From Candidatus Heimdallarchaeota archaeon B3_Heim (lineage in GTDB: Archaea > Asgardarchaeota > Heimdallarchaeia > Hodarchaeales > Hodarchaeaceae): 32,000 bases of DNA. Below the pieces are notes generated by a model. It worked only from the letters and a program-made list of their open reading frames with translations. It made no database searches and was not told the DNA's origin. Where the stretch lies: contig NJBF01000006.1 in assembly GCA_003144275.1 (NCBI GenBank), positions 60,001 to 92,000 of the forward strand, given 5' to 3'. How positions within the stretch are numbered: the first letter of the stretch is position 1; each line of letters starts with the position of its first letter. A program made the translations under genes and the position numbers. Below, in pieces: positions 2,338 to 31,805 of this stretch.

Positions 2338-3927
2338 TCAATTCTTCCAGACTAATGCTTTCTTGTAATCACTTATTTCCTTTTCTATTTCTTCAGAGGA
2401 CCATCCTAATAGGTCTCCCATATGGTGAGCGATCTCTTCAATGCAATCCAAACCTTGTTCAAATGATAATTGAATCTGTGTTCGTCGAAATAACACATCT
2501 CGTAATGTGATTACTTTTTCATATTTAATAAAATAATTGATTTCACCGAAAATATAAGGACGATGATTTGTAATAACTTTCATTAGCTGAGGATCTTCCT
2601 TTGCTTCATCTAGCATTTTGATATAATTATCCCCATATCTCAATAAGTGTTGAGCGACTTGCTCTGACAAATTATACCGGATCATCATATTCTCACATGC
2701 GATTCTTGACCAAGCGTCCCAACCCTGACGTTTAGTTGAAACCCAGCCATTCAATGGAACCTTGTCTGTAGTAGATTTTGTTTTATCCCCGAGAATTTTC
2801 GTGATTTTATCCACCATTTCTTTAGCCATTGTTCGATAGGTGGTAAATTTTCCTCCCGCTATAGCAAAAGTATTTGGTCTAACCATCCGGATTTCATGAT
2901 TTCGTGAAACATCCGATTCTGATTTGGCAGAGTTAGAGAGAATTAAGGGGCGGAGCCCTGAATATGCACTGATGATATCTTGCTCTGTGAGAGAACCAGG
3001 AAACATAAAATTCACTGCATCGATCAGGTAATTTGCATCTTCCTTTGTTACTGGAATATAATTAAAATCTTCCCCATAATCTGTGTCCGTTGTCCCAACT
3101 AACAAATTCTCTCCAAATGGAACAATAAATATTATCCTTCCATCTTCAACAGGTATAACAACGGCATGATCTAGGTTATAAAACCGTTTTGTAATTAGGT
3201 GAACTCCCTTTGTAGGTCGAACACGCGAATGTGATGAAGGGTTGATTTGTTGAACCATCATATCCCTCCAATGACCACAGGCTAAAACAAGCGTTTTTGT
3301 TTGGACTGTAAATACATGTTTATTCGTTTGATCGCGCATCGTTACTGTATCTACTCCCTCTGGACTTTGTAAATGGAAATGTTCAGCCGAACAATAATTT
3401 AAAATATTAGCTCCTGCTTTTTCTGCAGACAACATGACTTCAAGAGTCAACCGAGCATCATCCATTTGACCATCACCATAAATTGCTGCCCCTTGAAAAT
3501 TTGTCTCACGAATAGAATTTGGTAGTAGCATCTTTGCTTTTTCAGGGCCTAGTATTTTGTGAAAAGAATAATTTCGAAAATTAGCGAAAAGATCATAGAG
3601 CCAAACTGCTAATCTCATTTTTTTCTTTGTCAGAATAGTATCAGAATGAAGAGGAACAAGAAATTTCAATGGTCGTGTTATATGTGGTGCCATTTCAAGG
3701 ATTTTTTTTCTTTCAATTGATGCTTCACGAACGAGACGAAATTCCTTTTGGCCAATATAGCGCAGTCCCGCGTGTACAAGTTTGGATGAACCACTACTTG
3801 TCCCATGACCAAAATCATCTTTCTCAACTAATGCAACTGTAAGACCTCTTAGAGCAGCATCCCGAGCGATACCTGCACCTGTTATACCCCCTCCTACAAT
3901 AAGGATATCATAGTTAGTCTTACTCAT
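2338..3927 (-). CDS. glpD: FAD-dependent glycerol-3-phosphate dehydrogenase/oxidase (GlpD/GlpA family)
   Basis: YDILIVGGGITGAGIARDAALRGL, GTSSGSSKLVHAGLRY, DGQMDDARL, PTKGVHL, SAYSGLRPL, IAGGKFTTYRTMA, and a C-terminal TLRDVLFRRT. Likely start is the ATG at 3927 (MSKTNYD); the track start at 4035 overlaps tatD. Confidence 0.92.
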   Translation of the reverse strand: MSKTNYDILIVGGGITGAGIARDAALRGLTVALVEKDDFGHGTSSGSSKLVHAGLRYIGQKEFRLVREASIERKKILEMAPHITRPLKFLVPLHSDTILTKKKMRLAVWLYDLFANFRNYSFHKILGPEKAKMLLPNSIRETNFQGAAIYGDGQMDDARLTLEVMLSAEKAGANILNYCSAEHFHLQSPEGVDTVTMRDQTNKHVFTVQTKTLVLACGHWRDMMVQQINPSSHSRVRPTKGVHLITKRFYNLDHAVVIPVEDGRIIFIVPFGENLLVGTTDTDYGEDFNYIPVTKEDANYLIDAVNFMFPGSLTEQDIISAYSGLRPLILSNSAKSESDVSRNHEIRMVRPNTFAIAGGKFTTYRTMAKEMVDKITKILGDKTKSTTDKVPLNGWVSTKRQGWDAWSRIACENMMIRYNLSEQVAQHLLRYGDNYIKMLDEAKEDPQLMKVITNHRPYIFGEINYFIKYEKVITLRDVLFRRTQIQLSFEQGLDCIEEIAHHMGDLLGWSSEEIEKEISDYKKALVWKN

Positions 3928-3991
3928 TTTTTGAATAGTGTGTTCGCGGTATTTATGATTTTTCACAGTTTCTGCCTCGATCTCTGAATTG

Positions 3992-4735
3992 CTATATATT
4001 GAAGAATTTTTCCGCATTTCGGGTCGTAATCGCATCTACTTCTTCGATAGATGAATTCTTTAGCTTCGCTAACTCTTCAACGGCATATTTTATGTTTGCT
4101 GGTTCATTACGCTTTCTTGGTATGGGACTAAGAAAAGGAGAATCAGTTTCTACCACAATATGCTCTAAAGGAGTCTTTCGTGCTATCTTGCGATGTTTCT
4201 TTCGATTAACTACTGCTGTCGGTATTGATATCATCCATCCTAAATCAATTACTCTGGTTGTTTCACTGATGTTCCCTGCAAAACAATGCATTAGAATAGG
4301 TACTTTGGCGAAACGTTCCAAAATATCAATACAATCTGATTCCGCTTTCCGAGAGTGAATGACTAATGGTTTCTCAAGAGTATTCGCAAGCTCTATCAAC
4401 TGCTTAAAGATATCTTGTTGCTTACTTCGCCATTGGGATTCATGTATCCAGTGATAATCCAGCCCAATTTCCCCAATTGCAACAATAGAGGTGTTTTGAC
4501 CTATTAATTCAATTGTCTCCTCAAATGGTATCTCTTTAATCCTCTGTGGGGCAAACCCCAGTGTGGTAAAAATAAATTCTGGATGAGTTTTAGCGAGTTG
4601 AGTGGCAAAAGTAAATTGATGGGGTTCAATTGCACTATTTATTACAGCCTGAAGACCCGTTTTTTTCGCATTATCTATTACCACATCAATATTTTTCATG
4701 AAGTCTGGTAATAAATGTGCATGTGCATCGATCAT
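3992..4735 (-). CDS. tatD: TatD family DNase/metallohydrolase
   Basis: IDAHAHL, GEIGLDY, IHSR, MHCF and ETDSPF motifs. Confidence 0.95.
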   Translation of the reverse strand: MIDAHAHLLPDFMKNIDVVIDNAKKTGLQAVINSAIEPHQFTFATQLAKTHPEFIFTTLGFAPQRIKEIPFEETIELIGQNTSIVAIGEIGLDYHWIHESQWRSKQQDIFKQLIELANTLEKPLVIHSRKAESDCIDILERFAKVPILMHCFAGNISETTRVIDLGWMISIPTAVVNRKKHRKIARKTPLEHIVVETDSPFLSPIPRKRNEPANIKYAVEELAKLKNSSIEEVDAITTRNAEKFFNI

Positions 4736-8981: not shown

Positions 8982-9872
8982 TTATTCGTCTGCCTTCTTC
9001 TTATCCTTTGTGGGAATTTTTTTTACCCCAAAGACACCTACAGGTGGTAAACCTCCATCTCCAGATGATCTTCCTAGGTTACCCCCTTTCGAAAATCCTG
9101 CAACAGGTATATTAGCAGGTACCATCATTATGGTTGCTCCACCTTCAGTTGCAGCTTCAAATAGTAAATTTATCCAACGTAATTCCATAGCGATTGGTGA
9201 TTTAGCATATTTATTAGCTGCTTCTATCATTCCATCTGCTGCTTCTTTTTCTGCTTGGGCAAGTGTGATACGAGCACGTCGTTCCCTTTCAGCTTCCGCT
9301 TGACGGGAAATTGCTTCTTGTAACCTTGCTGGGACGACAACATCACGAATTTCTACACTCATGATTTTTATACCCCACTTTTCAGTCTTCTCATCTACAA
9401 TTTCTTGCATATGACTGGCAATCTTCTCCCGTTCAGCTAATACTTCATCCAGTTCGACTTGTCCAGTCACTTCTCGTAAGGTTGTTTGAGCAACCCACTG
9501 AGTAGCGGAGGAATAGTGTTCAACTTCTAAGATGGTCTTTTCAACGTCTACAACCTTAAAGAACAACACGGCATCGATAGTAACGGGAACATTATCTCTG
9601 GTTAAGCTTTGTTCAGAACGGAAGGAGTAAGTTTGGATTCGAGTGGAAATGATTGAGGGAATTTTATCAATACCAGGAATAATCCAGAAAAATCCTGGAC
9701 CCTTTAAGCCTTGATATCGTCCAAGTCGCAGAACAGGTGCCCGTTCCCATTCTTTAATAATCTTAATTCCACTGGCGAGATAAATCAATACAAGTATCAG
9801 ACCAAACAATCCAAAAAACAGTAGCATAACATCTGTGCCCGCATCTTGGGCAAAAAAATTCAGTATTTCCAT
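8982..9872 (-). CDS. SPFH/stomatin (band 7, slipin) family membrane protein
   Basis: N-terminal TM, EWERAPVLRLG, TRDNVPVTIDAV, AQTTLREVTG, WGIKIMSVEIRDV, QAEAERERRA. Confidence 0.95.
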   Translation of the reverse strand: MEILNFFAQDAGTDVMLLFFGLFGLILVLIYLASGIKIIKEWERAPVLRLGRYQGLKGPGFFWIIPGIDKIPSIISTRIQTYSFRSEQSLTRDNVPVTIDAVLFFKVVDVEKTILEVEHYSSATQWVAQTTLREVTGQVELDEVLAEREKIASHMQEIVDEKTEKWGIKIMSVEIRDVVVPARLQEAISRQAEAERERRARITLAQAEKEAADGMIEAANKYAKSPIAMELRWINLLFEAATEGGATIMMVPANIPVAGFSKGGNLGRSSGDGGLPPVGVFGVKKIPTKDKKKADE

Positions 9873-11182: not shown

Positions 11183-11306
11183 AATAGAGTTTTTGACTCA
11201 AGATATCTCATAAAAAGTCGCAATGATCTTTAAATAAATTTTTTCCCCAATGATAGAAAAAAGGGATTGTAAGAGGTGTTTTACCACCATCTTAAAATTG
11301 CTCTCA

Positions 11307-11969
11307 TTACTCTGCAGTTAAAATTTGAATTTCTAATTCTTTTTCGGTGAGAGGTTCTTTCTTATTCAGAGCATTTGTGATAATTTCGAGAACTAACTTC
11401 TTTGCAGCTTCAACTGCAATGCCTTGCTTATATTCCTTCCGAAGGGCATCGATTATTCGTTCATTCCCACTTCCAGCAGCATAAGCATTTACTGCAAAGT
11501 AAGAACCTCCATTATCTACAAAGAACAGTTCTGCCTCTTTAGAAATTGGATTGAAGCCTGCTAGGAGTAAAGCTGTTCCGAAAGGTCTAAGACCTCCTTG
11601 AATTGTATGGCGAGCCATTAAATCTCCTAATCGTTGAGCTAAAGCCCTGATGGAAATTTTTTCTCCGTAAATCAAACGATGTTGTTGAGCAACTAAACGT
11701 GCTTGTCCAATTAGAAGGTTTGAATCAGTAGAGAGGCCAGATGCAATTAGGAATAATTTACTATCTATTTTTTGAATTTTATCTGGTTTTACAACCAATG
11801 GATCAAATAAAGTTTCACCCGCGAGTAAAATGGTTTTACTATCTAAGATCATGCCTAATGCGGCTGCTCCTTTCTCGGATGCCTTTCGTGCATATGATAA
11901 TTGGACCAATTCACCGTCAGGACTCCATATTGCTGCAGATTTATCGTATGGTATTCTAGAATCGTACAT
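11307..11969 (-). CDS. psmA: 20S proteasome alpha subunit (divergent, short)
   Basis: YDKSAAIWSPDGELVQLSYA (canonical YD...FSPDGRLFQVEYA), KIQKID, SGLSTD, GGLRPFGTALLLAG. Confidence 0.92.
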   Translation of the reverse strand: MYDSRIPYDKSAAIWSPDGELVQLSYARKASEKGAAALGMILDSKTILLAGETLFDPLVVKPDKIQKIDSKLFLIASGLSTDSNLLIGQARLVAQQHRLIYGEKISIRALAQRLGDLMARHTIQGGLRPFGTALLLAGFNPISKEAELFFVDNGGSYFAVNAYAAGSGNERIIDALRKEYKQGIAVEAAKKLVLEIITNALNKKEPLTEKELEIQILTAE

Positions 11970-11979
11970 AATTTATACC

Positions 11980-12645
11980 TCACATGTCAATATGGATTTC
12001 TTCTGTTATTACTTGGTCTTCAACCTTGAAAAAGATCAATCCATCAATTCCATTCCCAGTAGCGTTATCTCTTGCAAGAGAGGTTTTTAAAGCTGCAATA
12101 GCAAGGTCTTTCGCCTTTTCTTTGTCGAGATCAGGTTTGTATGAGTGTTCTAATACACCTATGGATAATAGGGTTCCTGATCCAATTGCAAAGAAGTCTT
12201 CGTCAGAAATTGATCCATCAGGACCTAAAACATATACATGTGATCCACGACGATCGACTCCTGCAACTAAAAGTTGTACCCACCAAGGTTGAAATCTTCG
12301 AAAACTTCCATGCATGATTGTGGCAAGTAAGCTCCCAGCAACTTTAATACTGGGCTCGAAATTATTTTCAAGTTGATAAAGACGTAATTCACTTCGCAAT
12401 AGATCCACTAGTGCTTGTGCATCGGATACAGATCCTGCAATTCCAATACCAGTGTAATCATTGACCTTATGGACTTTTTTTGCATGTTTACTAGCAGTAA
12501 AACTGCCCATTGATGCACGACGATCAGCGATAACTAAAGCACCATTTTTAAACTTCAAGGCTAATCCTGTTGTCCCTTTTAATCTATTCATCTGGTCTTG
12601 CTGTGAATTATTATCGTTAAATAAGGGGTTTGTTGGATAATTCAC
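11980..12645 (-). CDS. psmB: 20S proteasome beta subunit with propeptide, catalytic triad intact
   Basis: LKG|TTGLAL with Thr1, Asp17 (ADRRAS), Lys33 (HAKK) and GSG. GTG start with AAGGAG upstream. Confidence 0.95.
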   Translation of the reverse strand: MNYPTNPLFNDNNSQQDQMNRLKGTTGLALKFKNGALVIADRRASMGSFTASKHAKKVHKVNDYTGIGIAGSVSDAQALVDLLRSELRLYQLENNFEPSIKVAGSLLATIMHGSFRRFQPWWVQLLVAGVDRRGSHVYVLGPDGSISDEDFFAIGSGTLLSIGVLEHSYKPDLDKEKAKDLAIAALKTSLARDNATGNGIDGLIFFKVEDQVITEEIHIDM

Positions 12646-12873
12646 TTTGTGTTTCTCCTTTATTGTGTTTTTTATTGTTGTTAAACATTATATTGTTTCA
12701 TATAGAGAATTTCTAGAACTTATTAATATGACTGGCTTTGGGAAAAAAAGAGAAATTGCTGTTTATCAAGCGAGAATGCTTTGGAAAAATTACTTTTTCC
12801 TTCTTGAATTAGAGAATTTGGTATAGTTCTCCTTTTAATATTGACTGAAACCTAGATTCCAATGATTAAGGGA

Positions 12874-16878: not shown

Positions 16879-17454
16879 CTATTCTATGTTCAATTTATGT
16901 CTTTTCTCAGTAGTTTTTTGTTTTTTACTGCTTATTTCAAGAACTCCATTATGGATCGTACTTTTTGTTTGCTTCGGTTCTATTTTCGAGGGTAGGTGTA
17001 CGACTTGATTAATCTCCCTGGTACCAGCTTTTCCATTAAGAGTTAACTCCAAACCACTTTCGTCAATTTCGATATTCAAATTGTCTTTTGTAAACCCAGG
17101 AACTTCTACTATAATCTTTAAAGAATCATCTTCATCTAAAATATCAACGAACCGATCCAAACTGGTTGGTTTTGAAGATATCTCAGGGTTTTCGCGATGT
17201 GTGGGAATCATTTCAAGTTGAGGTAACCCTCTTTTCTCACGATAGTCATTTAAATTTCCCCATTGTCGGACTTCTGGTCTATAATCGGTTTCTGGGCCAA
17301 TTCGCATAGAATATCCGAAAGTAATCGGTCCTTCCTCTGTGTATTCTCTATTCATTCCTTTAAGAGAAGTGTTGAATTCTTCATTAAATGATTTAAAAAT
17401 GTCAGTAAAGTCAAAATTCCAAAAATTATCAAAATTTCGTCTTTTTCGATTCAT
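16879..17454 (-). CDS. hsp20: Archaeal small heat-shock protein Hsp20
   Basis: GPITFGYSMRIGP...VRQWGN, VDILDEDD.LKIIVEVPG, alpha-crystallin end HNGVLEI and C-terminal LNIE (IxI). ATG at 17454 has AAGGTGAT upstream. Confidence 0.93.
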   Translation of the reverse strand: MNRKRRNFDNFWNFDFTDIFKSFNEEFNTSLKGMNREYTEEGPITFGYSMRIGPETDYRPEVRQWGNLNDYREKRGLPQLEMIPTHRENPEISSKPTSLDRFVDILDEDDSLKIIVEVPGFTKDNLNIEIDESGLELTLNGKAGTREINQVVHLPSKIEPKQTKSTIHNGVLEISSKKQKTTEKRHKLNIE

Positions 17455-17505
17455 ACATATCACCTTTTAGTAATTGTCTCTGATAAAAAATATATTCACG
17501 TATTG

Positions 17506-20127: not shown

Positions 20128-21351
20128 TCAGTTAAGAAAAGCATTTAAATACTTAATAAATGGGAATGCAAGAGTCACCTTTAGTGGAACACGACAATGA
20201 ACCACGGCATTCACATCTGACGATTTTAACCTATTCAGGTACCATTGAACTTGACTATCACGTCCAGATGATATTTTATCGAACAGTCGTCTTAATTTAT
20301 ATGCACGTGTGAACATTGTCATCATCTGTTCTTTCCATTTAGTCTGATAATCAAGAAGTGATCCATTTCCAGTTAGATAATTATGGATTGATTCTGCAAC
20401 AATAGATCCAGCTACCATAGATGTTGGTATACCACCTCCAACGCTGGAAACAACTTGACATGCGGAATCCCCTACTAATAGTGTATTTGACTGTTCATCA
20501 ACGGTTTTTTTCAGCGGTAATCCGACTGGGACAAGACCTCCAATTGTCGAGTCGATTGTAGCTGACTGTAACAATTCACTTACGAATGGATGCTCTGAGG
20601 TAAAATTTTCCAATGCTTTGGATACTGTGATTTTGCCTTTAGTCATGGGGGTTCGTAGTCCAACTCCTACATTGGCAGTATTTCCATTTTTCGGAATCAC
20701 CCAAGCATATGCTCCTGGAGCGTAGTTCTCCCCGAAAAACATCTGTATATCTGTGGGATCATAATCTGGGGAATCTATGTTGGTCATTACATGTTGTTTA
20801 GCATAAACAAAATGCTCTGTATTCCTTTTTTCAGAGAGCCCAGTCCATCTAGCTATTCGGGATCGGGCACCATCTGCTCCAACAATTACTTGTGCTTTTA
20901 TAGGTTCAGGAGTTGATCCCTCACGGGAAATCCAAACGGAATTCTTGACCTTGTTTACAGCTCGCGCCGATCTCCAAATCTGTGCTCCAGCTTTTTCAGC
21001 AGAAATAAGTAAATCTTCATTCCAAGCTCCCCGATGTAATGTATATCCTTCAAAAGGAGTTTGGATGATTTTTCCCATCGGGGAATGAAAACTTATTCGG
21101 TTAGTTCTGGAACTTATGTATTTTGATTCAAAGGTATAAAAATTAAGTGCATCGGGAACATCAGGAGTGAGAATAGCCATTTCCTCTGGAGAGGGCATAA
21201 ATTCTCCACATTGCACAGGGAAACCTGGTCGTTCTCGTTTGTCTATACCAAGTATTGAAAGGTCTTTGCCTGCTATTTTTGTTAAGTTTTTCAACGTGGA
21301 TGCTCCAGCTGGACCTAATCCTACAACTAGCACATCAACTTTCATGATCAT
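20128..21351 (-). CDS. Geranylgeranyl reductase family flavoprotein (DGGGPL reductase-like)
   Basis: VLVVGLGPAGA, PVQCGE, IVGADG, YAWVIPK, LLVGDSACQV...GGGI. Likely start at 21351 or 21345 (track TTG 21363). Confidence 0.92.
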   Translation of the reverse strand: MIMKVDVLVVGLGPAGASTLKNLTKIAGKDLSILGIDKRERPGFPVQCGEFMPSPEEMAILTPDVPDALNFYTFESKYISSRTNRISFHSPMGKIIQTPFEGYTLHRGAWNEDLLISAEKAGAQIWRSARAVNKVKNSVWISREGSTPEPIKAQVIVGADGARSRIARWTGLSEKRNTEHFVYAKQHVMTNIDSPDYDPTDIQMFFGENYAPGAYAWVIPKNGNTANVGVGLRTPMTKGKITVSKALENFTSEHPFVSELLQSATIDSTIGGLVPVGLPLKKTVDEQSNTLLVGDSACQVVSSVGGGIPTSMVAGSIVAESIHNYLTGNGSLLDYQTKWKEQMMTMFTRAYKLRRLFDKISSGRDSQVQWYLNRLKSSDVNAVVHCRVPLKVTLAFPFIKYLNAFLN

Positions 21352-21380
21352 TGTTCCCAACAAAGACTAACAAGGAATGT

Positions 21381-22967
21381 TCAAGACTGAATGAAGTTGT
21401 TTGCAGCGTCAACGGCAAAATCAAAAATAGCTCCTGGGATCACACCGATGAGAATAATTAGAATCACTCCAATTCCAATAGCCATTGCATATGACATTGG
21501 GATTCGATAAGTTTTCATAGATTCAACATTGACTGTATGGGATTCAATTAGTTCTTCGGCTGGTGGATCGAGAATCATTAATTTTATTACTCGTATGTAA
21601 TAGAAAACAGATATTGCACTGTTGATTACTCCAATTATTGCTAACCAGATCAAATCAGCGTAAAGAGCAGAGAAAAAGATAAACAACTTGGAAATAAATC
21701 CAGCTAGAGGGGGAACACCCATTAAACTTAGAAGAGCTATTGTCATTGCAAAGACTATCCACGGATGCCGTTTCCTGAGCCCAGCATAGTCATTAATTTC
21801 CTCACTGCCTACAGAAAAGGAAACAACAATAACAACTGTAAAAGCAACAATCTTCATCACAGCGTGAGTCAGAATGTGGAACTCAGCTGCAGCAATTGAA
21901 AAACTTCCAACAGTTATATCAATGAGTCCTGTAATAGCTGCTGCAGGTTCATTTGCTGCGGCAGCTAATGCTATTAGTATATACCCCGCGTGTGCTATAC
22001 TAGAGTAAGCCAACATTCTCTTGATATTAGTTTGAACCAATGCAACTAAGTTACCAAGAGTCATTGTTAAAACAGCCAATATAGCAAAGATCATTCCCCA
22101 AATTTCTCCTAAATCCGTTAATCCCACAACGACTATTCGCATTATTGCAGCAAAACCCATCGCTTTGGATCCAGCAGCAAGAAAAGTCGTGATAGCTGTA
22201 GGGGTTCCTTGATATACATCCACTGCCCACGCATGGAAAGGAACTGCAGCCATCTTATAACCAAAACCGACAAATAGAAACATCAGTGCCAATACATGTA
22301 AAGGAGAATAACTCGATAAATCTGCAAAAGAAGCGATTACTGTTTCTAGACTTGTGGGTGTGAGGGATCCTGTTGAGCTTGTGATACCATAAATGAGTGA
22401 AATTCCAAATAATATGAAGGCTGAAGACATTGCACCGATTAAAAAGAATTTCAACGCACTTTCGCTGGTTTCAGCTCTTGATTTCTGGTACGCTGCAAGA
22501 GAATATACTGGGAGAGAGCCCAGTTCCCAAGCTACAAATATTAAAAGTAGATCATTTGCTGCAACTAGAACCATCATGCCAATAGTAGCCAGGATGAGAA
22601 GTGAGTAATAGACACCCAAATTGTAGTCGGTTTTCATATAGTCACTACTAGATATGGCTACGAAAACTAATACAATGAGAAAAATAATTGCAAAGAATCG
22701 AAAGAAATCATCGATAATGAATAACCCAGAAGGATGGGTGTGTGTGTGTGTTGTTTGGACATCGAGGAAATCAACAGGATTCCCAAAAAGATAAGAAATA
22801 TCACCATTTACACTTAAAATAACACTATAGAGTGAGAGAAATCCACCAATAATAGTGATAGGGGGAGTGAATCTCCTTGCTATATTGAACGCTTCAAGAA
22901 GAAGACATATGATCATAGTTCCTATTAATATTAGGAAGGGTAACAGTATAATGGCGATATTACTCAT
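21381..22967 (-). CDS. nuoN: Complex I-like subunit N
   Basis: AWELGSLP, ESALKFFLIG, GYKMAAVPFHAW, NIKRMLAYSSIAHAG, FISKL; last gene of the membrane arm. Confidence 0.95.
   Translation of the reverse strand: MSNIAIILLPFLILIGTMIICLLLEAFNIARRFTPPITIIGGFLSLYSVILSVNGDISYLFGNPVDFLDVQTTHTHTHPSGLFIIDDFFRFFAIIFLIVLVFVAISSSDYMKTDYNLGVYYSLLILATIGMMVLVAANDLLLIFVAWELGSLPVYSLAAYQKSRAETSESALKFFLIGAMSSAFILFGISLIYGITSSTGSLTPTSLETVIASFADLSSYSPLHVLALMFLFVGFGYKMAAVPFHAWAVDVYQGTPTAITTFLAAGSKAMGFAAIMRIVVVGLTDLGEIWGMIFAILAVLTMTLGNLVALVQTNIKRMLAYSSIAHAGYILIALAAAANEPAAAITGLIDITVGSFSIAAAEFHILTHAVMKIVAFTVVIVVSFSVGSEEINDYAGLRKRHPWIVFAMTIALLSLMGVPPLAGFISKLFIFFSALYADLIWLAIIGVINSAISVFYYIRVIKLMILDPPAEELIESHTVNVESMKTYRIPMSYAMAIGIGVILIILIGVIPGAIFDFAVDAANNFIQS
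22738..22750. repeat. (GT)6G dinucleotide tract inside nuoN, encoding HTHTH
   Basis: GTGTGTGTGTGTG read directly from the sequence. Confidence 0.8.
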
Positions 22968-22982
22968 TTTTTCATTTCACCT

Positions 22983-24545
22983 TTAGAATTGAGATTCGAA
23001 AAATGCTGTTGCTTCAGTCATCATATCTAGCAGCAATGCTGGGAAAAGTCCCAATATTAAAGTAAAGAGACTTAATAATCCAAGTACGGAATATTGTGAC
23101 CAATGGGATACATCATGGGCATGTGAAAGTTCAGGATTCTTATCACCAAAAACAGTTCTTTGTAACATCCAAAGATAATATGCTGCTGTAAAGATAATTC
23201 CGAAAATAGCTATAAAAGCCAGAACTGGTACCCATTCAAAGAGAGCAATGAATACTAATAGTTCTGACCAAAATCCCGCAAGTCCTGGCAAACCTGCACT
23301 TGCAAATGAGGCAAAAACTAACACTGCCGCAGTTATAGGCATATGTTTGGCTATACCACGTAATTTAGGGATATCTCTAGTATGTGCAGAATGTCCTATT
23401 GTTCCAGCTATAAAGAACAATAAAGGAGATATGATTCCGTGAGCTATTTGCATAAATTGTGCTCCAGCGAATCCTTCCTCTGTTTGAGCAGCAACTCCAA
23501 GAAGAACGATTCCCATATGGCCAACACTACTGTAAGCTACAAGAGATTTCATATCTACCTGTCTTAAAGCAACCCACGCACCATATAGCAAGGAAACAAT
23601 TCCTATTACAGCTACTAACCAAGCAAATTCCGTTAAGGCGTGGGGTAGAAACCACCCACTCATACGCATTAGACCATACCCACCCATTTTCAATAATAAT
23701 CCAGCCAATATCATAGATCCAGGAGTTGGGGCTTCAACATGCGCTAAGGGAAGCCAAGTGTGAAAAGGTACGCTTGGTACTTTGACGATAAATCCAAACA
23801 GTAATGCCAAGAATATTAATAATACAAAAGTCTCTGCTCCAAAATCTATTTGTCTCAGGAGATCAAATGAGAAAGTTCCACCACCGCCTGTGACCTCTGG
23901 ATAATCTGCTGACTTTAGCCAAATACCGATTATTCCTAACAGCATAACCATAGATGCTACATGTGTATATATGAAAAAGTAGATTGCAGCATATTCCCGT
24001 CGGGGTCCACCCCAAATACCTATTAGGAAGAACATTGGTACAAGCACCAATTCCCAAGCAACATAAAAGATTACAAAATCTGTAGCGAGAAAAGTACCCA
24101 AGACACCTGTCTCTAACAATAGAATCATTGCATAATAAGCAGGTTCTCTTTCATGAATATCCTTGAATGAAGCAAGTATTGCGATACAGAATATGAACCC
24201 ACTTAAGAGAACTAAAGGCATGCTTAGCCCATCAACTCCAAGTGAAAAATTCATTCCTATCGATTCAATCCAAGGAATATTTACCACTAACGTCCAACCA
24301 CCGCTAGCAAGAGCATCACGATTTGCATGCATAGAAGAATCCAATAATGAATGGTTTTCATACATCATCCAAGCCAATATAGCAAGACCAAACGTGATTA
24401 CGCTCATTAGCAGCGCAAAATAGCGTGCAAATCCTTCACGCACACGGCCAATAAACCATGTGGGTAGTGCAGCTAGAATTGGTAGAAGGAAAATAAGAGT
24501 TAACACTCCGATTCCGTTTTCACCAAATAATATTTGTGTTATCAT
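22983..24545 (-). CDS. nuoM: Complex I-like subunit M
   Basis: LGVDGLS, AWELVLVP, VKVPSVPFHTWLPLAHVEAP, LLKMGGYG, FWSE. ATG at 24545 is preferred over TTG at 24554. Confidence 0.96.
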   Translation of the reverse strand: MITQILFGENGIGVLTLIFLLPILAALPTWFIGRVREGFARYFALLMSVITFGLAILAWMMYENHSLLDSSMHANRDALASGGWTLVVNIPWIESIGMNFSLGVDGLSMPLVLLSGFIFCIAILASFKDIHEREPAYYAMILLLETGVLGTFLATDFVIFYVAWELVLVPMFFLIGIWGGPRREYAAIYFFIYTHVASMVMLLGIIGIWLKSADYPEVTGGGGTFSFDLLRQIDFGAETFVLLIFLALLFGFIVKVPSVPFHTWLPLAHVEAPTPGSMILAGLLLKMGGYGLMRMSGWFLPHALTEFAWLVAVIGIVSLLYGAWVALRQVDMKSLVAYSSVGHMGIVLLGVAAQTEEGFAGAQFMQIAHGIISPLLFFIAGTIGHSAHTRDIPKLRGIAKHMPITAAVLVFASFASAGLPGLAGFWSELLVFIALFEWVPVLAFIAIFGIIFTAAYYLWMLQRTVFGDKNPELSHAHDVSHWSQYSVLGLLSLFTLILGLFPALLLDMMTEATAFFESQF

Positions 24546-24565
24546 TGTCTTCAACCTTCAATTTT

Positions 24566-26854
24566 TTAGAGGGGAAATACCCCTGCCATTAGTAAACCGA
24601 TGATAATAATTGCAATTGCACCCAGTAAGGAGTACAGTGCGTAATTTTCGACTACTCCCGTTTGAACGTGACTCATATATCTCCCAGTCTTCATAACACC
24701 TTTAGCTGAGCCCCTTATTAACCCTTGATCGATGATTCGTTCATCTGTTGCTTTTGCTAAACTACACAATGCAACTGAGGCACGACCTGTTAAACGAACC
24801 AAACCATCTATAACCGTATCATCCCACCACTTAGAAAAACCACAGAGCGCAAAACCAATTCTTCCAGTTAATCTCACAGCTCGATCGAAGACGTTCTTCT
24901 CGATCCAGTTCATAGCTTCACAATAGTACTCATAGAATAGATGAACAAGTTTCAGATATAGGGTATCAATATAATATCCATTTTCCAATATTAGTTGAAC
25001 TCCCCGACCAGGTGCTGAAGCCTTTACTCCACGTACAAAAGATCGAACTTTCAATTGAATATTTGTAATTCTATCAGATGGTGCCTCAGGTACATCTATT
25101 TTGAAGGAAGGTTCATCTTTTGGAAAAGTGATTTGAGCTTTTGCACGGGGGTAGTAAATCAAATACGCTAGAGCTATTCCAATAGTGGTTACAAAAATTG
25201 AGGTGCTACCTGTCTCAAAATCGAAAACTGGCCCTATTCCACCTTCTAACCATTCCACCATATGGTGTTCAATATTAAAAAGTGAAAAAAGCTCAATTTT
25301 GAACGTACTTCCTATCAGACCAACTGAATATATTCCCGCTAATACCAATGATACAATAGCTAGGATCCATAATGGTTTAGTCATCCATCCATCAGATTCA
25401 TGAATATCATGACCAGAACGATTTTCGCCTGGAAAAACTAGGAACCACATTCTAGAAATGTAAAATGCTGTTAAGAACGCTGTAATTAACGCAGAAAGCC
25501 AAACTAGCGCGATTAATGGTTCATGTACTATATGGTTCCTTGCATGTGAAATAATTGCATCTTTGCTAAAGAATCCATTTCCGAAGCCTGCAAGTGAAAG
25601 TGAGCCTATAGCCATAACCTTCCAAGTATCAGGCATATGTGATTTTAAACCACCCATTTCACGAATATCTTGCGTTCCAGATCCATGAATGACTGAACCT
25701 GCAGATAAAAAGAGCAAAGCTTTGAATATCCCATGGTTAATGACATGAAAGATAGCGACCGCCATTCCTCCCACACCTAAACCTATGGTCATATATCCTA
25801 GCTGGCTGATAGTGGAAAACGCCAAAATACCTTTGATATCTGTCTGAACTAATGCAATAGAACCGGCCATGATTGCTGTAATTCCACCAATGAGAGCAAC
25901 AATTAACAAAGCATTTGAATCTGCAAATTCAAAAACGAAGTAACTACGAGCTATCAAAAAAATTCCTGCTTTCACCATCGTTGCGCTGTGGATTAGACAG
26001 CTAACCGTAGTAGGTCCTGCCATGGCGTCAGGTAGCCATACATGAAGTGGGAATTGAGCTGATTTTCCAACAGCTCCACCAAAAATTAATAAGGCGATGA
26101 ATGCGAACAATCCGGGATCAAAGATTCCAGGAATTACTCCTGCTTCTATCATATGTCTAATTTCAATAAAATCGAAAGAGGGATGATATATTCCATGATA
26201 TCTTTGTGAAGCTGCAACAGTAACGAGATAAAGCAATATTATTCCTGCGAATAAGAAGATATCTCCTATCTTGGTTGTCAAGAACGCCTTTTTAGCTGCC
26301 GAAGCTGGATGAGGTTGTCCTTCTGGTACAACTTCTTTTTCATAGAAATAACCAATTAGTAAGTAACTGCAAACACCCATAAGTTCCCACCCGATGAAGA
26401 GTTGAATAAAATTTGGGGACAAACAAAGGGTTAACATTGCTGCTGCGAACATGTTTATTTCAGCATAATAACGAGGAGACCCCTCGTGAGACATATAACT
26501 TCTACTATACACAACCACTAGAAAAGCTATAAGAGCAACCATTAAACTTACAATAACTGAAAGAGGATCAAGAAGTACACCAATTTCTACTTTTACATCC
26601 CCTACTTGAAACCATGTTGTGACAATTTTTTCTTCTATATGTGCATGATCAAAGAGAAGACGAAAAATAATTTCGCCCGAAACAAGTAGAGTTAAAATAA
26701 GACTTCCGCCAGTTGCAATAAGTGCAATCAAATTTCCGTGTGCTTTTTTGTCATAATATTTTCCAATAAACAGTACAATGAAGGATGCTACAATTGGAAT
26801 AATTGGTATAAGAATAGCAAAATTGCCAAAAATCAGTATTACTTCTTCAGCCAT
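24566..26854 (-). CDS. nuoL: Complex I-like subunit L
   Basis: GWELMG, GKSAQFPLHVWLPDAMAGPT, IHSATMVKAG, HGIFKALLFL, GFFSKD and the C-terminal lateral helix. Confidence 0.96.
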   Translation of the reverse strand: MAEEVILIFGNFAILIPIIPIVASFIVLFIGKYYDKKAHGNLIALIATGGSLILTLLVSGEIIFRLLFDHAHIEEKIVTTWFQVGDVKVEIGVLLDPLSVIVSLMVALIAFLVVVYSRSYMSHEGSPRYYAEINMFAAAMLTLCLSPNFIQLFIGWELMGVCSYLLIGYFYEKEVVPEGQPHPASAAKKAFLTTKIGDIFLFAGIILLYLVTVAASQRYHGIYHPSFDFIEIRHMIEAGVIPGIFDPGLFAFIALLIFGGAVGKSAQFPLHVWLPDAMAGPTTVSCLIHSATMVKAGIFLIARSYFVFEFADSNALLIVALIGGITAIMAGSIALVQTDIKGILAFSTISQLGYMTIGLGVGGMAVAIFHVINHGIFKALLFLSAGSVIHGSGTQDIREMGGLKSHMPDTWKVMAIGSLSLAGFGNGFFSKDAIISHARNHIVHEPLIALVWLSALITAFLTAFYISRMWFLVFPGENRSGHDIHESDGWMTKPLWILAIVSLVLAGIYSVGLIGSTFKIELFSLFNIEHHMVEWLEGGIGPVFDFETGSTSIFVTTIGIALAYLIYYPRAKAQITFPKDEPSFKIDVPEAPSDRITNIQLKVRSFVRGVKASAPGRGVQLILENGYYIDTLYLKLVHLFYEYYCEAMNWIEKNVFDRAVRLTGRIGFALCGFSKWWDDTVIDGLVRLTGRASVALCSLAKATDERIIDQGLIRGSAKGVMKTGRYMSHVQTGVVENYALYSLLGAIAIIIIGLLMAGVFPL

Positions 26855-26872
26855 GATTTGTCACCCGAGTTT

Positions 26873-27184
26873 TTATCCTTTCAATGATTGAAAGTCTGTT
26901 GCCTCCACTGTTCCATGATTACGATAAACGGACAAAATAATTCCCAATCCTACTGCTGCTTCTGCAGCTGCCAATGCTATGCTAATAATTACTGCTATTT
27001 GTCCTGTTACAAATCCTACATCATTATAAAGTGCAAAAATTGCAAAATTGATATTCGCCGAGTTCAACATTAATTCTACTGCAATAAGCATACGTATTGC
27101 TGATTTAGATTTAATAAAACCTGCTAAACCAATGAAAAATAATAATAATGCTATACCTACAAAAATTGAAGCATCTGCGATCAT
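26873..27184 (-). CDS. nuoK: Complex I-like subunit K
   Basis: IAVELMLNSANINF and AAAEAAVGL, with both conserved Glu residues. Confidence 0.95.
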   Translation of the reverse strand: MIADASIFVGIALLLFFIGLAGFIKSKSAIRMLIAVELMLNSANINFAIFALYNDVGFVTGQIAVIISIALAAAEAAVGLGIILSVYRNHGTVEATDFQSLKG

Positions 27185-27750
27185 AGATCCTCAACCTCCT
27201 TCTTTACAAGATAGACACTTCCAAGCATTGCTCCTAACAGTAACAATCCTAAAGTGAGAATTGTGCCTCCGTGCGTAGTAAACATTTGTTCAGCCAAGTT
27301 ACCTATTAACACGTTGTCAAAATTTTCAACATCTTTTGCAGCTAAATCTTGAAGAGCCCAAAAAACACTACTTACCTGAGTGAGAACATATGCTGTAATC
27401 ATGAATAACAAAAATGCTCCAGCAAAGCTTAAGCGCCAATCCATCAATTTTCCTGAACCTGGTTTTTCAAACATGGCATCTTTCCCTGATAACGAAATAG
27501 CGAATAGCATTAAGATTGTAATACCGCCAGCGTAAACAATTATTTGTATAACCAATAATAATGCAGAGCCAGCATAAAGCAAGAAAATCATAGCAACTCC
27601 GAGGAGACAGAATATTAGCCATACAACTGCGTGATAGACACTTTTAACGGAAACTGCGAGGTATGCAGAGCCAGTCGTATATATGACGAGTAAAAATAAT
27701 ACAAAATATTCTAACAGTTCAAATAATTCAGGTGGGATCAAATAGGCCAT
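27181..27750 (-). CDS. nuoJ: Complex I-like subunit J
   Basis: QIIVYAGGITILMLF and LLLGAMLGSVYL; position between nuoI and nuoK. Confidence 0.92.
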   Translation of the reverse strand: MAYLIPPELFELLEYFVLFLLVIYTTGSAYLAVSVKSVYHAVVWLIFCLLGVAMIFLLYAGSALLLVIQIIVYAGGITILMLFAISLSGKDAMFEKPGSGKLMDWRLSFAGAFLLFMITAYVLTQVSSVFWALQDLAAKDVENFDNVLIGNLAEQMFTTHGGTILTLGLLLLGAMLGSVYLVKKEVEDL

Positions 27751-27752
27751 AA

Positions 27753-28409
27753 TTAACTCTCCTTATTAGTCTCCGTCAGTAGCTTTCGATTATCTTGATA
27801 TTCTCTATCACCATACTTCTCTACATACTCTTTCCAGTGATCTGCATATTCTTTTGGATAATAGAGCTTGAACAACCCGTATAAATCTTGATAATCATGA
27901 TATAATTCTTCTTTATTGGACGTTGCTGCATCAAATCCAGGTGTATGATGTAATGCATCATACTTACACGCTTCTACACAAAAACCGCAGTAAAGGCATC
28001 TCCCGATGAAAATTTGTGGGTGTAACAACGGTCGGGGGGATTTTCCTTCACGAGCTTTTTGTTTTTCTACCCAATGTGCTGGAGTAGGGGTAATTTCAAC
28101 CATTTCTATGCATTTATTTGGACAAACTCGTTCACAGGCTTTACAACCTGTACAGTTTGGTGCATTTAAACCAATTAATCCCCGAGAATTTGGTGAGATG
28201 TGGGGTGTTGCTTCAAACACATCGGAAAATGTTAATTCTCGATCAAGGATAGTTTGACCCTTTTCAGCCAATGCTTCTGGGAAATAGATTGTATCCTTAT
28301 TCCGACGATCACCGTCATATATGGCAATCGGCTTTTTAAAGAGTAATCGCCCTACGTAAGCTAATGGCCGAGTTATCAAGACATTAGGAATTAATTTGAA
28401 ATTCACCAT
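27753..28409 (-). CDS. nuoI: Complex I-like subunit I (2x[4Fe-4S])
   Basis: CTGCKACERVCP and RCLYCGFCVEAC. Confidence 0.95.
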   Translation of the reverse strand: MVNFKLIPNVLITRPLAYVGRLLFKKPIAIYDGDRRNKDTIYFPEALAEKGQTILDRELTFSDVFEATPHISPNSRGLIGLNAPNCTGCKACERVCPNKCIEMVEITPTPAHWVEKQKAREGKSPRPLLHPQIFIGRCLYCGFCVEACKYDALHHTPGFDAATSNKEELYHDYQDLYGLFKLYYPKEYADHWKEYVEKYGDREYQDNRKLLTETNKES

Positions 28410-28410
28410 T

Positions 28411-29553
28411 TTAACTCACAACACCAAATAATGCTGGATTCATAAGAAACATAACGATAATTAAGAATATATTTACAAAAGCAAGAGGTATTAGACGTTT
28501 CCAACCGATATCTAACAATTGATCTATTCTGACTCTCGGTAGGGCAGCTCTAACCCATATAAATATGAAAATAAATGCCCAGATCTTTACAACAAGAATT
28601 GCTGTTGATAGTAAAGGGATACTTTCAATTGTGCTCGCTGGGATAAACGGTAGATAGGCCCCACCCCAAAAGAGGGATACACCAATAAAGGCACCAATCA
28701 GCAGAATAAAGTATTCTGTTGCCATCGACATCATATAACGAAAGCCAGTTAATTCCGTTCGCCACCCCATGACTAATTCTGCTTCTGCCTCGGGAATATC
28801 GAAGGGAATTCTTTCAGTTTCTGCAGCTAAAGACACCATAAATACTACAAATCCAATAGGCATGAAAATCATAAATGGAAGTCCTGCAGGAGTATAGGTT
28901 TGTTGGTAGGCGATATCAACCAATGAAAATGAATTGGTTACTATTACTACTGCGCCAACAGACAAGATCAGGGGAATTTCATAACTAATCATTTGAGCTG
29001 CTGATCTAAATCCTCCGAGTACTGAATATTTATTATTTGAAGACCATCCAGTTATCAAAACACCTACAGGATAGAGAGAGAACAGTGCAAAGATTAATAG
29101 AAAACCAACTGCAGGATCTGCTATAACTTGGGTTGCTCCAAGTGGAAGTAATGCTCCGAGCATAAATGGTGGAGCAACAACGAATGCAAAAAAACCAATG
29201 TTAAAAGGAAATTTGTCCGCTTTTTCAGGTACGATATCTTCTTTCGAAAAAAACTTAAGAAACTCTGCTATATTTTGTAGAAGCCCAAACTTCCATGTTC
29301 GTCCGAAAAAATGCCCATAGTTGAAATCTATGAACACAGGGCCTCGTCTATTCATCATACGACCTACAAGTTTTCTTTCAAACCAAATTAGTAAGATAGT
29401 ATTAACAATTAGGAATACCAAAATTGAGGTCATTTCTAAGCTATCGATTAAAGTTAAACGTAAAGAATCTTGAAATTCAACCTGACCTGGTAAAATATCA
29501 CTGATTAATCCGAGTAACCAGTCAGCAAACCCTTCATATATACCGTAACCCAT
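28411..29553 (-). CDS. nuoH: Complex I-like subunit H
   Basis: ERKLVGR, SNNKYSVLGGFRSAAQMISYE, ETERIPFDIPEAEAELVMG, PRVRIDQL. Confidence 0.96.
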   Translation of the reverse strand: MGYGIYEGFADWLLGLISDILPGQVEFQDSLRLTLIDSLEMTSILVFLIVNTILLIWFERKLVGRMMNRRGPVFIDFNYGHFFGRTWKFGLLQNIAEFLKFFSKEDIVPEKADKFPFNIGFFAFVVAPPFMLGALLPLGATQVIADPAVGFLLIFALFSLYPVGVLITGWSSNNKYSVLGGFRSAAQMISYEIPLILSVGAVVIVTNSFSLVDIAYQQTYTPAGLPFMIFMPIGFVVFMVSLAAETERIPFDIPEAEAELVMGWRTELTGFRYMMSMATEYFILLIGAFIGVSLFWGGAYLPFIPASTIESIPLLSTAILVVKIWAFIFIFIWVRAALPRVRIDQLLDIGWKRLIPLAFVNIFLIIVMFLMNPALFGVVS

Positions 29554-29563
29554 CTTCTATCAC

Positions 29564-30652
29564 CTATCTATCGATTTCTCCCATGCAAAGATCTGCACTA
29601 GCTATAATTGGTGGAATATCAGCAACTTTGCCACCCGTTATCAAATGCGAAGTTAAACATAGATTGGAATATGCTGGTGATTTTATCTTCACACGGTAAG
29701 GGATTTTATCATCGTTCCCAATAATATAATATCCTGCTTCACCACGAGGATCTTCGGTTCTAAAATAAACTTCTCCTTGAGGGAGTCTCCTGGGTGCCTT
29801 CTGATTAATTTCACCTTCTGGAGGGAGATTATCTAAAGCTTGACGTATAATGTGAGTAGACTGTCTTATTTCCTCCATTCTAATTTGGAATCGTGCTAAG
29901 CAATCTCCACCAGTTCGGACTGGAACCTCAAAATCCAGTTCAGGATAGACTAAATACGGTTCAATCTTTCGAATATCACCCTGAACTCCTGATGCTCTTA
30001 AAACAGGGCCAGTTGCCCCAAGATTCAGAGCGTTCTCTTTTGAAAGAACACCTACCTCCACACTTCGAAGCATAAAAACCTTCGAATCTTCTAACATTGC
30101 GCTATATTCTTTTATACGCTCATCAAGATAGTAAGTCAGTTTTCTCGCATCATTAACAAAACCCTGAGGGAATTCATGCTTCAGTCCTCCTACACGAAAA
30201 TAATTATACATCATTCGAGAACCTGTAACATGTTCTAATAAGTCAAGAACATATTCTCTTTCCCGGTACGGGATAACAAGCATTGTCAATACTCCCAAAT
30301 CTCCCGCGTAAGCAGAAAGCCATGTGAAATGCGATGCAATTCGTTGAAATTCGAGCATTATCACTCGCATATATTGAGCTCGTTTGCTAACTTCCATCCC
30401 TAAAAGTTTCTCAATTGCCATTATGTAAGTCCCTTCCCATGACATTGCTGAGACATAGCATAATCTATCTGCAAGTGGCTGAAATGTATCATAAGGACGT
30501 GATTCAGCCATTTTTTCAATCATACGAAAAATATAACCAATGAGGATTTCTGAACCAACAACTTGTTCTCCCTCAGTCTTAACTTTTAATGTCCACAAAC
30601 CATGATTAACTGGATGCTGAGGACCCATATGAATATACATTTGTTCACTCAT
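29564..30652 (-). CDS. nuoD: Complex I-like subunit D (quinone-binding, no complete NiFe ligand set)
   Basis: GPQHPVNHG, DRLCY, RIASH...DLG, GPVLRASG, PRGEAG, DLCMGEIDR. Confidence 0.96.
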   Translation of the reverse strand: MSEQMYIHMGPQHPVNHGLWTLKVKTEGEQVVGSEILIGYIFRMIEKMAESRPYDTFQPLADRLCYVSAMSWEGTYIMAIEKLLGMEVSKRAQYMRVIMLEFQRIASHFTWLSAYAGDLGVLTMLVIPYREREYVLDLLEHVTGSRMMYNYFRVGGLKHEFPQGFVNDARKLTYYLDERIKEYSAMLEDSKVFMLRSVEVGVLSKENALNLGATGPVLRASGVQGDIRKIEPYLVYPELDFEVPVRTGGDCLARFQIRMEEIRQSTHIIRQALDNLPPEGEINQKAPRRLPQGEVYFRTEDPRGEAGYYIIGNDDKIPYRVKIKSPAYSNLCLTSHLITGGKVADIPPIIASADLCMGEIDR

Positions 30653-30654
30653 GG

Positions 30655-31173
30655 TTAGACCTCCTTATTGGGTTGTGGTTTATAGGAAAAAGGTTTTTCT
30701 GGTAAAGTGTATGCTCTTCTCATAGGGTACAATTCGGAAATGTGTTTATGTTCATAATCGTCCCAATCTTCGGGGAGTAATAACCGTTTCAAGTTAGGAT
30801 GCCCAGATACGTGAATTCCAAACATATCATACAGCTCCCTCTCGTGCCAATTCGCAGAAGCCCAGATGGATGTTATTGAGGGAACTTGGGATTTATCTCG
30901 ATCATCCAGCTTGACACGGACTTGGATGACCGTTGAATCTCCATCCCAGCGATCGATGTGATATACTACATCAAAATGAGTTTCCCAATCAACTCCAGAA
31001 ATAGCTTCCAAAGATGGAAATTCCAAATCCTGAGCTACAAAGGTCATTACCTCAAAAAGATTGTCAGAACTAGTTTTAATTTCAAGACGGGAATCAGCGA
31101 TAATTTGAACATCATCGATTTTTCCTGAAAGTTTTTCCTGAATTTGCTTTCTGTGTTCCTCTATAGGCGTCAT
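30655..31173 (-). CDS. nuoC: Complex I-like subunit C
   Basis: ISGVDW, VPSITSIWASANWHERELYDMFGI...GHPNLKRLLLP. Confidence 0.96.
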   Translation of the reverse strand: MTPIEEHRKQIQEKLSGKIDDVQIIADSRLEIKTSSDNLFEVMTFVAQDLEFPSLEAISGVDWETHFDVVYHIDRWDGDSTVIQVRVKLDDRDKSQVPSITSIWASANWHERELYDMFGIHVSGHPNLKRLLLPEDWDDYEHKHISELYPMRRAYTLPEKPFSYKPQPNKEV

Positions 31174-31805
31174 TTCTCTTCTTCCTCCAGTAATTTGCCT
31201 TTAAGGATTATCCGATGATCTATCAAGGGAGGGGCTCTCTCATAGAACTCTCTAGGAAGCTCTCGAAGAGGTTCTGGGACATAAACACCATCTGCTTTTA
31301 TTTTTTCTTGAAGACGATGAAGTCCAGCCCACATTGCTTCTGGTCTGGGGGGACAGCCTGGTACATAGATATCAACAGGAATTACTTGATCAGTTCCTTC
31401 CAAAATTGTTGGAGCTTGCCAAAATGGACCTCCACTTATAGCACATTCTCCTGTAGCGAAAACCCACTTCGGTGCTGCCATCAAATCGTAAACGGTTCTC
31501 AATCGTGGAGCTGCTTTGATAGTCATTGGCCCATTAATCCATAGAACATCACAATGACGGGGACTTGCCCGAGCTAAAATTCCTATTCGCTCTGTATCAT
31601 ACCGAGAAGCCATTGTTGCAGCCATTTCAATAGCACAACATTTCATACCTAAAAATACTGGGTATAAACTGGCTCTTTGACTCCAATTCCTTAACCAATT
31701 CAGTATTACCGTCGTAAAATTTCGACTTTTCGTTAACACCACATTGGGCATTGGTTCATAGATTTCAAGCTCTCCAAGAGCTTTTAATTCTTTATATTCA
31801 GCCAT
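31170..31805 (-). CDS. nuoB: Complex I-like subunit B (N2 cluster)
   Basis: KCCAIEM, RASPRHCD, GECAISGG, VDIYVPGCPPRPEA. Confidence 0.97.
   Translation of the reverse strand: MAEYKELKALGELEIYEPMPNVVLTKSRNFTTVILNWLRNWSQRASLYPVFLGMKCCAIEMAATMASRYDTERIGILARASPRHCDVLWINGPMTIKAAPRLRTVYDLMAAPKWVFATGECAISGGPFWQAPTILEGTDQVIPVDIYVPGCPPRPEAMWAGLHRLQEKIKADGVYVPEPLRELPREFYERAPPLIDHRIILKGKLLEEEEK

Follow-up and report, generated by a model that had tools for sequence, protein, structure and literature searches.

A beta-alpha proteasome operon with a divergent alpha subunit in a Hodarchaeales archaeon

Archaeal proteasomes are built of rings with one kind of subunit and those of eukaryotes of rings with seven; how the change came about is still debated, and the order Hodarchaeales has been proposed in published work as the one closest to eukaryotes. 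The window analysed here, a 32,000-nucleotide (nt) stretch of contig NJBF01000006.1 from the Hodarchaeales archaeon B3_Heim, carries a proteasome beta gene, psmB, followed directly by the gene for a short and divergent alpha-type subunit, which we call alpha2. Does this tandem encode a 20S particle of its own, accessory to a canonical proteasome, as an original prediction made from the DNA letters had proposed, or does it belong to the only core particle that the cell makes? We think it fairly probable that the tandem descends from an ancestral psmB-alpha operon of the Heimdallarchaeia, and that in this organism one kind of beta ring would be capped by two alpha isoforms, of which alpha2 may have altered gating; for co-assembly and gating we argue from gene content and from analogy with better known proteasomes. 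The argument starts from three features.

Positions 11980..12645, minus strand: psmB, the genome's only proteasome beta gene; 221-amino-acid (aa) precursor with a 24-residue propeptide, Thr1 being residue 25.
Positions 11307..11969, minus strand: alpha2, a divergent, short (220 aa) proteasome alpha-type subunit.
Positions 11970..11982, minus strand: the beta stop codon and the 10-nt spacer, with a Shine-Dalgarno-like GAGGT that overlaps the TGA.

Gene count and the question of a second particle

A search of all six-frame open reading frames (ORFs) of the B3_Heim assembly (3.95 Mb, 36% G+C, 94% complete) with PF00227 and with exhaustive phmmer (--max) found exactly three proteasome-family genes: the beta, alpha2 and alpha1. 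The last is a canonical 245-aa psmA on another contig (contig 57), where it is followed by SBDS and Rrp4. The arrangement psmA-SBDS-Rrp4 is the classic exosome superoperon, and alpha1 occupies it in 22 of the 22 Hodarchaeales loci read. The original prediction had suggested counting psmA and psmB paralogues and looking for a canonical psmA near rrp4; that gene is indeed present, and with two alphas and one beta in the count the window pair are not the genome's only genes of this kind. No second beta gene was found in this genome (PF00227 and six-frame phmmer), in 21 genomes of the genus or in the two genomes of a second Hodarchaeales family (f2). Each of the 21 genus genomes has the single beta, including one that is a closed 4.9-Mb chromosome, and alpha2 orthologues occur in 20 of them (the exception is 83% complete) as well as in both genomes of the second family. 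With its single beta the genome does not encode another, independent 20S particle, and its two diverged alphas would have to be combined with one and the same kind of catalytic ring.

A second, accessory particle has some features in its favour, in that the pair is self-contained and apparently coupled in translation, both of its proteins score beneath the NCBIfam equivalog cut-offs, and a canonical psmA lies elsewhere in the genome. It would, however, need a beta ring of its own beside that of the canonical proteasome, and there is just one beta in all of the genomes named above; moreover, the beta-alpha tandem is the layout of the whole class Heimdallarchaeia, and in the other families of that class it is the only 20S gene set. 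We therefore give almost no credence to a second particle, and the original claim that the tandem is a dedicated accessory pair falls with it.

The beta protein matches PF00227 at 168 bits (Pfam) and the NCBIfam archaeal PsmB equivalog TIGR03634 at 182.3 bits, which is under the cut-off of 224. Its catalytic residues were assigned by alignment to the mature Archaeoglobus fulgidus beta subunit (1j2q_H). In this alignment the processing site lies between G24 and T25, so that residue 25 is Thr1; Asp17, Lys33, Gly47, Ser129 and Asp166 are present, and Ser169 is replaced by Thr. Thr1, Asp17 and Lys33 had all been recognized in the original prediction.

One genome of the second Hodarchaeales family (G023) carries a third alpha-type gene at a contig end (L056:2239-2850), which is 44% identical to alpha2 and unlinked to a beta. 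Its full-length representative (P0124, 246 aa) groups with the alpha2 of the same genome in trees. As seen in G023, this family thus has three alphas and one beta.

The operon and its spread through the Heimdallarchaeia

The psmB gene runs from a GTG start at 12643-12645 to a TGA stop at 11980-11982, and alpha2 from an ATG at 11967-11969 to a TAA at 11307-11309. The junction of the two genes is TGAGGTATAAATTATG, with a spacer of 10 nt; the stretch 11970..11982 reads TGAGGTATAAATT and is followed by the ATG of alpha2. We infer that the GAGGT over the beta TGA is a translational coupling signal, by which alpha2 would be made together with beta. A TGAGG with a spacer of 10-12 nt is found in 31 of 31 genus loci read (some of which are the same genome twice), and it is therefore no chance feature. 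When the junction was re-read, the order psmB then psmA, the 10-nt gap and the GAGGT across the beta stop were the same as first described; every detail of that description stood apart from the strand, both genes being on the minus strand. The synteny LeuRS (leucyl-tRNA synthetase) - beta - alpha2 - metallophosphoesterase is conserved in the genus.

The same three genes are present in the second Hodarchaeales family (2 genomes), where alpha2 is 53-62% identical and the spacer is 56-66 nt; alpha2 orthologues at more than 50% identity are confined to the Hodarchaeales. Among the Heimdallarchaeia outside this order, 19 of the 19 genomes with loci read (four families) carry a single alpha and a single beta, in every case arranged as a beta-alpha tandem whose genes are 1-16 nt apart, and in the five such genomes in which the superoperon was checked it starts at SBDS and has no psmA (5/5). 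Other Asgard classes usually have two alphas, one of them with SBDS, and two or three unlinked betas. Throughout the Heimdallarchaeia the 20S genes thus form a beta-alpha operon, mostly with no other 20S gene beside it; the Hodarchaeales stand out by an extra alpha1 of canonical type and by how far their linked alpha has diverged. A quick maximum likelihood (ML) tree of the betas, made without bootstraps, places all alpha-linked betas in one clade (Shimodaira-Hasegawa-like approximate likelihood ratio test, SH-aLRT, 95), inside which the betas of the Hodarchaeales branch among the betas of the remaining families. Thus the operon beta is vertically related across the class, and the operon is old and no Hodarchaeales add-on. 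A literature search gave no account of Asgard alpha paralogues or lineages, of the Heimdallarchaeia beta-alpha operon or of Hodarchaeales alpha2, which does not prove that none exists.

Some other Asgard families differ in their proteasome gene sets. Families f16 and f23 have a linked pair in the order alpha-beta, with long acidic C-terminal tails on the alpha (L137, L146 and L148; also L136, L138, L145 and L149), and these families also have an additional beta that is extremely divergent, has a very long branch and scores 41-61 bits to the window's beta. In family f19 (G066) two canonical-type alphas stand in direct tandem (L090:2402-3142 and 3294-4007), in addition to the superoperon alpha. 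Within the Heimdallarchaeia, one genome of family f7 (G126, 87% complete) yielded no alpha and only a beta fragment at a contig end, which is probably an assembly gap.

The flanks of the operon were read from the sequence as follows.

Positions 12646..12715, minus strand: AT-rich leader 5' of psmB, with AAGGAG 9-10 nt before the GTG.
Positions 11245..11306, minus strand: intergenic stretch 3' of alpha2, with a T6 run.

The leader, in which AGGA lies at 12656-12659 upstream of the psmB GTG, is likely to be the promoter and ribosome-binding region of the two-gene operon, the promoter being presumably of archaeal type, and the T6 run after alpha2 is a possible archaeal oligo-T terminator. No hairpin terminator was found after alpha2, and a promoter scan gave nothing usable, the scan being of bacterial type and the host archaeal. 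The nearest neighbours of the operon (LeuRS, the metallophosphoesterase and a cyclophilin-like protein) have no relation to proteolysis. A few kb away are an Hsp20 gene (16879-17463, minus strand) and an SPFH/Band-7 gene (8982-9872, minus strand), and a long series of close-spaced, co-directional ORFs that resembles a large operon occupies 20128-31805 on the minus strand.

Descent of alpha2

The alpha tree comprised 73 rows and was built by a careful ML search under LG+C20+F+G4 with posterior mean site frequencies (PMSF), with betas as outgroup. Its Asgard alphas were drawn from genomes irrespective of their similarity to alpha2, and its representatives came from a library of 1.8 billion proteins; these included eukaryotic sequences named as alpha2, alpha3 and alpha4 types, and the eukaryotic sample covers four alpha types only, all from the matches closest to the alpha2 of the window. 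In this tree alpha2 falls inside a divergent lineage of Asgard alphas (ultrafast bootstrap, UFBoot, 93; SH-aLRT 93) that we label group I for this analysis and that holds all of the beta-linked alphas. A branch with support of 97/98 unites the eukaryotic alphas, the canonical Asgard alphas and the Hodarchaeales alpha1 to the exclusion of group I. The same division is seen in a deletion of two residues just before the pocket lysine, which is present in all 12 group I rows and in the 5 alpha2 rows and absent from alpha1, from the other canonical Asgard alphas, from the archaeal-type outgroup representatives sampled and from 16 of 17 eukaryotic representatives. This deletion is a discrete character, independent of branch lengths. 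Asgard alphas appear, then, to form two old lineages, one of which travels with its own beta as an operon. The eukaryotic alphas group with the other, canonical lineage, and the data support the view that among the sampled Heimdallarchaeia only the Hodarchaeales kept this type, within which the eukaryotic alphas nest.

Could alpha2 instead be a recent, Hodarchaeales-specific duplicate of alpha1 that landed beside psmB and then evolved fast? Such an origin would fit the restriction of its orthologues above 50% identity to that order and the long alpha2 stem branch, and approximately unbiased (AU) tests against a poorer, quick tree gave no rejection (p 0.28). Those tests are superseded, as the tree from the quick search lies 23 log-likelihood units (lnL) below the careful one and was itself beaten by a constrained tree. 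Against the careful tree, a clade of alpha1 and alpha2 is 30.5 lnL worse and is rejected (p-AU 0.013). In addition, the deletion is common to alpha2 and group I and is not found in alpha1, and the slot behind psmB holds an alpha in every other family of the class, beside betas that are orthologous. A recent duplication is thus very unlikely. The length of the stem has a different meaning when variation within the genus is considered: over the same genome pairs, identity to the window genome is 84-86% for alpha2, against 72-75% for alpha1 and 64-72% for beta. Of the three genes alpha2 varies least, and the long stem therefore reflects an old episode of change followed by strong constraint, not decay.

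The original prediction also saw in the pair a possible step toward the eukaryotic multi-subunit 20S particle. In its explicit form this would make alpha2 the closest archaeal relative of the eukaryotic alphas, or of the alpha4/PSMA7 type, with the alpha pair recording the first duplication toward the heteroheptamer. Several results point that way: the best eukaryotic matches of alpha2 in the PDB are alpha4/Pre6 (106 bits), the top Foldseek match is yeast chain C, a FastTree tree sets alpha2 beside alpha4 sequences, the organism belongs to the Hodarchaeales, and a tree constrained to join alpha2 with the eukaryotes, though 13.8 lnL lower than the careful tree, is not rejected in the AU test (p-AU 0.158). 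However, the neighbours of alpha2 in the FastTree tree (188 rows) are the fast-evolving alpha4 sequences of the diplomonad Spironucleus and of microsporidia, the usual pattern of long-branch attraction, and the placement is gone under LG+C20 PMSF; with the fast sequences removed and a site-heterogeneous model, alpha2 lies in group I and the 97/98 branch joins the eukaryotes to the canonical alphas. Eukaryotic alphas have the long form of the loop and not the deletion, archaeal alphas in the PDB outscore any eukaryotic one (127 against 106 bits), W15 and E20 of alpha2 are derived and not eukaryotic features, and the narrow choice of eukaryotic types, made from the closest matches, also speaks against this origin. 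Neither the ML tree nor the deletion favours the predicted step, in spite of the AU value, and we consider sisterhood with the eukaryotic alphas quite improbable. A broader proposal is that alpha1 and alpha2 share one ring on the single beta. Such an alpha ring would be hetero-oligomeric although archaeal, and would represent a surviving intermediate on the way to the heteroheptamer of eukaryotes; the stronger form of the proposal is again the sister relationship. This we hold to be unlikely.

A 495-aa 'double alpha' (P0123) that came up among the candidates is in fact a plant gene-model fusion.

The alpha2 protein, its predicted gate and related systems

Alpha2 matches PF00227 at 111 bits (Pfam cut-off 22.4) and, with 28.4 bits where 27.7 are required, only just matches PF10584, the signature of the alpha N-terminus. 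It remains under the cut-offs of the archaeal PsmA equivalog TIGR03633 (165 bits against 287.35) and of NF003075 (172 against 219). Because both alpha2 and beta score beneath the NCBI PsmA and PsmB cut-offs, many of their orthologues are deposited as 'hypothetical protein'. An alignment-based AlphaFold2 (AF2) model has a confident alpha fold (predicted local distance difference test, pLDDT, 89), and Foldseek matches it to yeast, Plasmodium and Thermoplasma alphas with a template modelling (TM) score of about 0.85; a single-sequence AF2 model (pLDDT 37) was useless and was set aside. There is no Thr1, helix H0 (residues 22-33) is present in the model, and the C-terminal strand and helix are missing, the chain stopping at the last strand. 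Residue numbers of alpha2 match those of the Thermoplasma alpha, except that K64 corresponds to Thermoplasma K66. Aligned in this way, alpha2 keeps Y8, D9, P17, G19, Y26, K33 and K64 and differs by R to K10, I-T to A12-A13, F to W15, R to E20, V to L24 and E to S25, in agreement with the first description (220 aa; gate Y/D/P/Y and Lys kept; W for F, E for R and S for E). W15 and E20 are fixed in both Hodarchaeales families, the pocket lysine is present in at least 90% of 39 aligned relatives, and the invariant core alpha residues are kept across the family. Judged by these features, alpha2 is best taken as a genuine, conserved proteasome alpha paralogue, and so as a known kind of protein.

Several of the substitutions fall on residues that control the gate. 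In Thermoplasma, E25 pairs with R28 or R20, and an E25A mutant has a raised basal activity that PAN or PA26 does not increase further; I12 and T13 make up an 'IT switch', and V24 lines the hydrophobic pocket that receives the HbYX (hydrophobic-tyrosine-X) motif of activators (PMC12352868). At these gate-control positions alpha2 has A12/A13, L24, E20 and S25; Y8, D9, P17 and Y26, which make up the open-gate cluster, are kept. Since these residues are changed, gating different from that of alpha1-capped particles is expected, and alpha2-capped particles, if the Thermoplasma residues are a guide, are probably more open or less dependent on PAN or other activators. The genome encodes one PAN and four Cdc48-like ATPases, among which the following C-termini were read.

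C50:51770-52852 and C96:100769-102340 of the window genome, plus strand: PAN / Cdc48-like ATPase C-termini.

The single PAN ends E-Y-T, with the penultimate Tyr kept and Glu at the 'hydrophobic' position; one Cdc48-like ATPase ends G-Y-L and another S-F-L.

These changes raise the question of whether alpha2 forms a ring at all, or whether it has left the outer ring and now assists in the assembly or regulation of the alpha1/beta particle, or sits on it like a cap as a pseudo-subunit. The loss of the C-terminal helix, the borderline alpha signature, the changed gate-control residues and the scores beneath the equivalog cut-offs would be in keeping with such a role. On the other hand, the operon alphas of family f3 are equally short (216-218 aa) and are the only alphas there, so they must form a ring; the invariant core residues of alpha2 are kept across its family; and alpha2 is better conserved than either alpha1 or beta and has a one-to-one coupling to the latter. 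We regard a role outside the ring as unlikely. The linked alpha is the sole alpha in all of the sister families and therefore must form the ring there, and from this and from its coupling to beta we infer that alpha2 forms a heptameric ring on the beta ring.

The reading that we prefer, one beta ring with two alpha isoforms, can be put together as follows. The window operon, psmB and then its own alpha, would be the ancestral 20S core operon of the Heimdallarchaeia, and its beta is the only catalytic subunit of the cell. Alpha2, from the old divergent Asgard lineage of group I, would be made with beta by coupled translation, presumably in equal amounts, and the Hodarchaeales, unlike the other families of the class, have retained the canonical alpha1 in the exosome superoperon. 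A single kind of beta ring could then be capped by alpha2 rings, by alpha1 rings or by mixed rings, and heteromeric or alternative alpha rings on one beta, the part of the original prediction that is left, are plausible. Alpha2 retains the residues that are needed to form the ring, open the gate and dock activators (Y8, D9, P17, G19, Y26 and the pocket Lys) and is changed at those that hold the Thermoplasma gate closed and make it responsive to activators (A/A in place of I12/T13, E of R20, S of E25, L of V24 and W of F15).

Several points weigh against this reading. Alpha2 scores beneath the curated cut-offs of the NCBI archaeal alpha models, its lack of a C-terminal helix would also fit a role outside the ring, and the argument about gating is borrowed from mutants made in a distantly related organism. 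In the tree, alpha2 stands closest to two unlinked alphas from the Asgard family f21, and a grouping that joins it to the operon alphas of the sister families and to nothing else is rejected (p-AU 0.012), so that the alpha and the beta of the operon may have partly different histories. Finally, group I could be inflated by long-branch attraction, the alpha2 stem being about 1.0 substitutions per site long.

The two f21 alphas come from one genome (G063; L133:2354-3079 and L134:2327-3073) and share with alpha2 D/E20, L24 and an ARKA..EKG stretch. The two betas of that genome belong to other clades, and a canonical alpha was not found there; one of its alphas is near a gene for a Ras-family GTPase.

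The interest of the locus is that the order proposed to be nearest to eukaryotes carries two deeply diverged alpha types and one beta, that the operon lineage is the only proteasome of most Heimdallarchaeia, and that natural changes at R20, E25 and the I12/T13 switch provide an archaeal alpha isoform in which altered gating could be put to the test. Comparison with known systems places it more closely. With the archaeal PsmA proteins of Thermoplasma acidophilum (1pma), Methanocaldococcus jannaschii (3h4p) and Archaeoglobus fulgidus (1j2p), alpha2 shares the fold, the length class, about 34% identity over residues 3-212 and the conserved Y8, D9, P17, G19, Y26 and K66-equivalent; it differs in scoring about half as high against the best archaeal alphas as alpha1 does (127 against 246 bits), in having A12, A13, W15, E20, L24 and S25, the two-residue deletion before K66 and no C-terminal helix, and in a gene that lies behind psmB and not in the exosome superoperon. 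Actinobacterial prcB-prcA has the same beta-then-alpha order and co-translation, but neither protein is a member of those families (beta 83 bits to TIGR03690, cut-off 192; alpha2 19 bits to TIGR03691, cut-off 139), and no Pup, Mpa or Dop gene is near the operon; the common gene order is convergent or trivial. The beta-alpha operons of other Heimdallarchaeia match in gene order, tight spacing, orthologous betas and group I alphas with the deletion, whereas there R20 and E25 are kept in the linked alpha, beside which the genomes have no other; the Hodarchaeales alone add the canonical alpha1, and their linked alpha is on a long stem branch. Eukaryotic alpha4 (yeast Pre6, human PSMA7) is the best eukaryotic type by sequence and fold and has a loop of similar length after strand S7, but it is not the sister of alpha2 in the careful tree and is without the group I deletion.

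The best functional analogue, compared here at the level of genes only, is Haloferax volcanii, which also has two alpha genes and one beta gene (psmA, psmC and psmB). Core particles of different alpha composition have been isolated from it, and its alpha2 cannot replace alpha1 (PMC2910475). The Haloferax duplication is almost certainly an independent one, and alpha2 of the window differs from its Haloferax namesake in its apparent coupling to beta and in being the positional counterpart of the sole alpha of the sister families.

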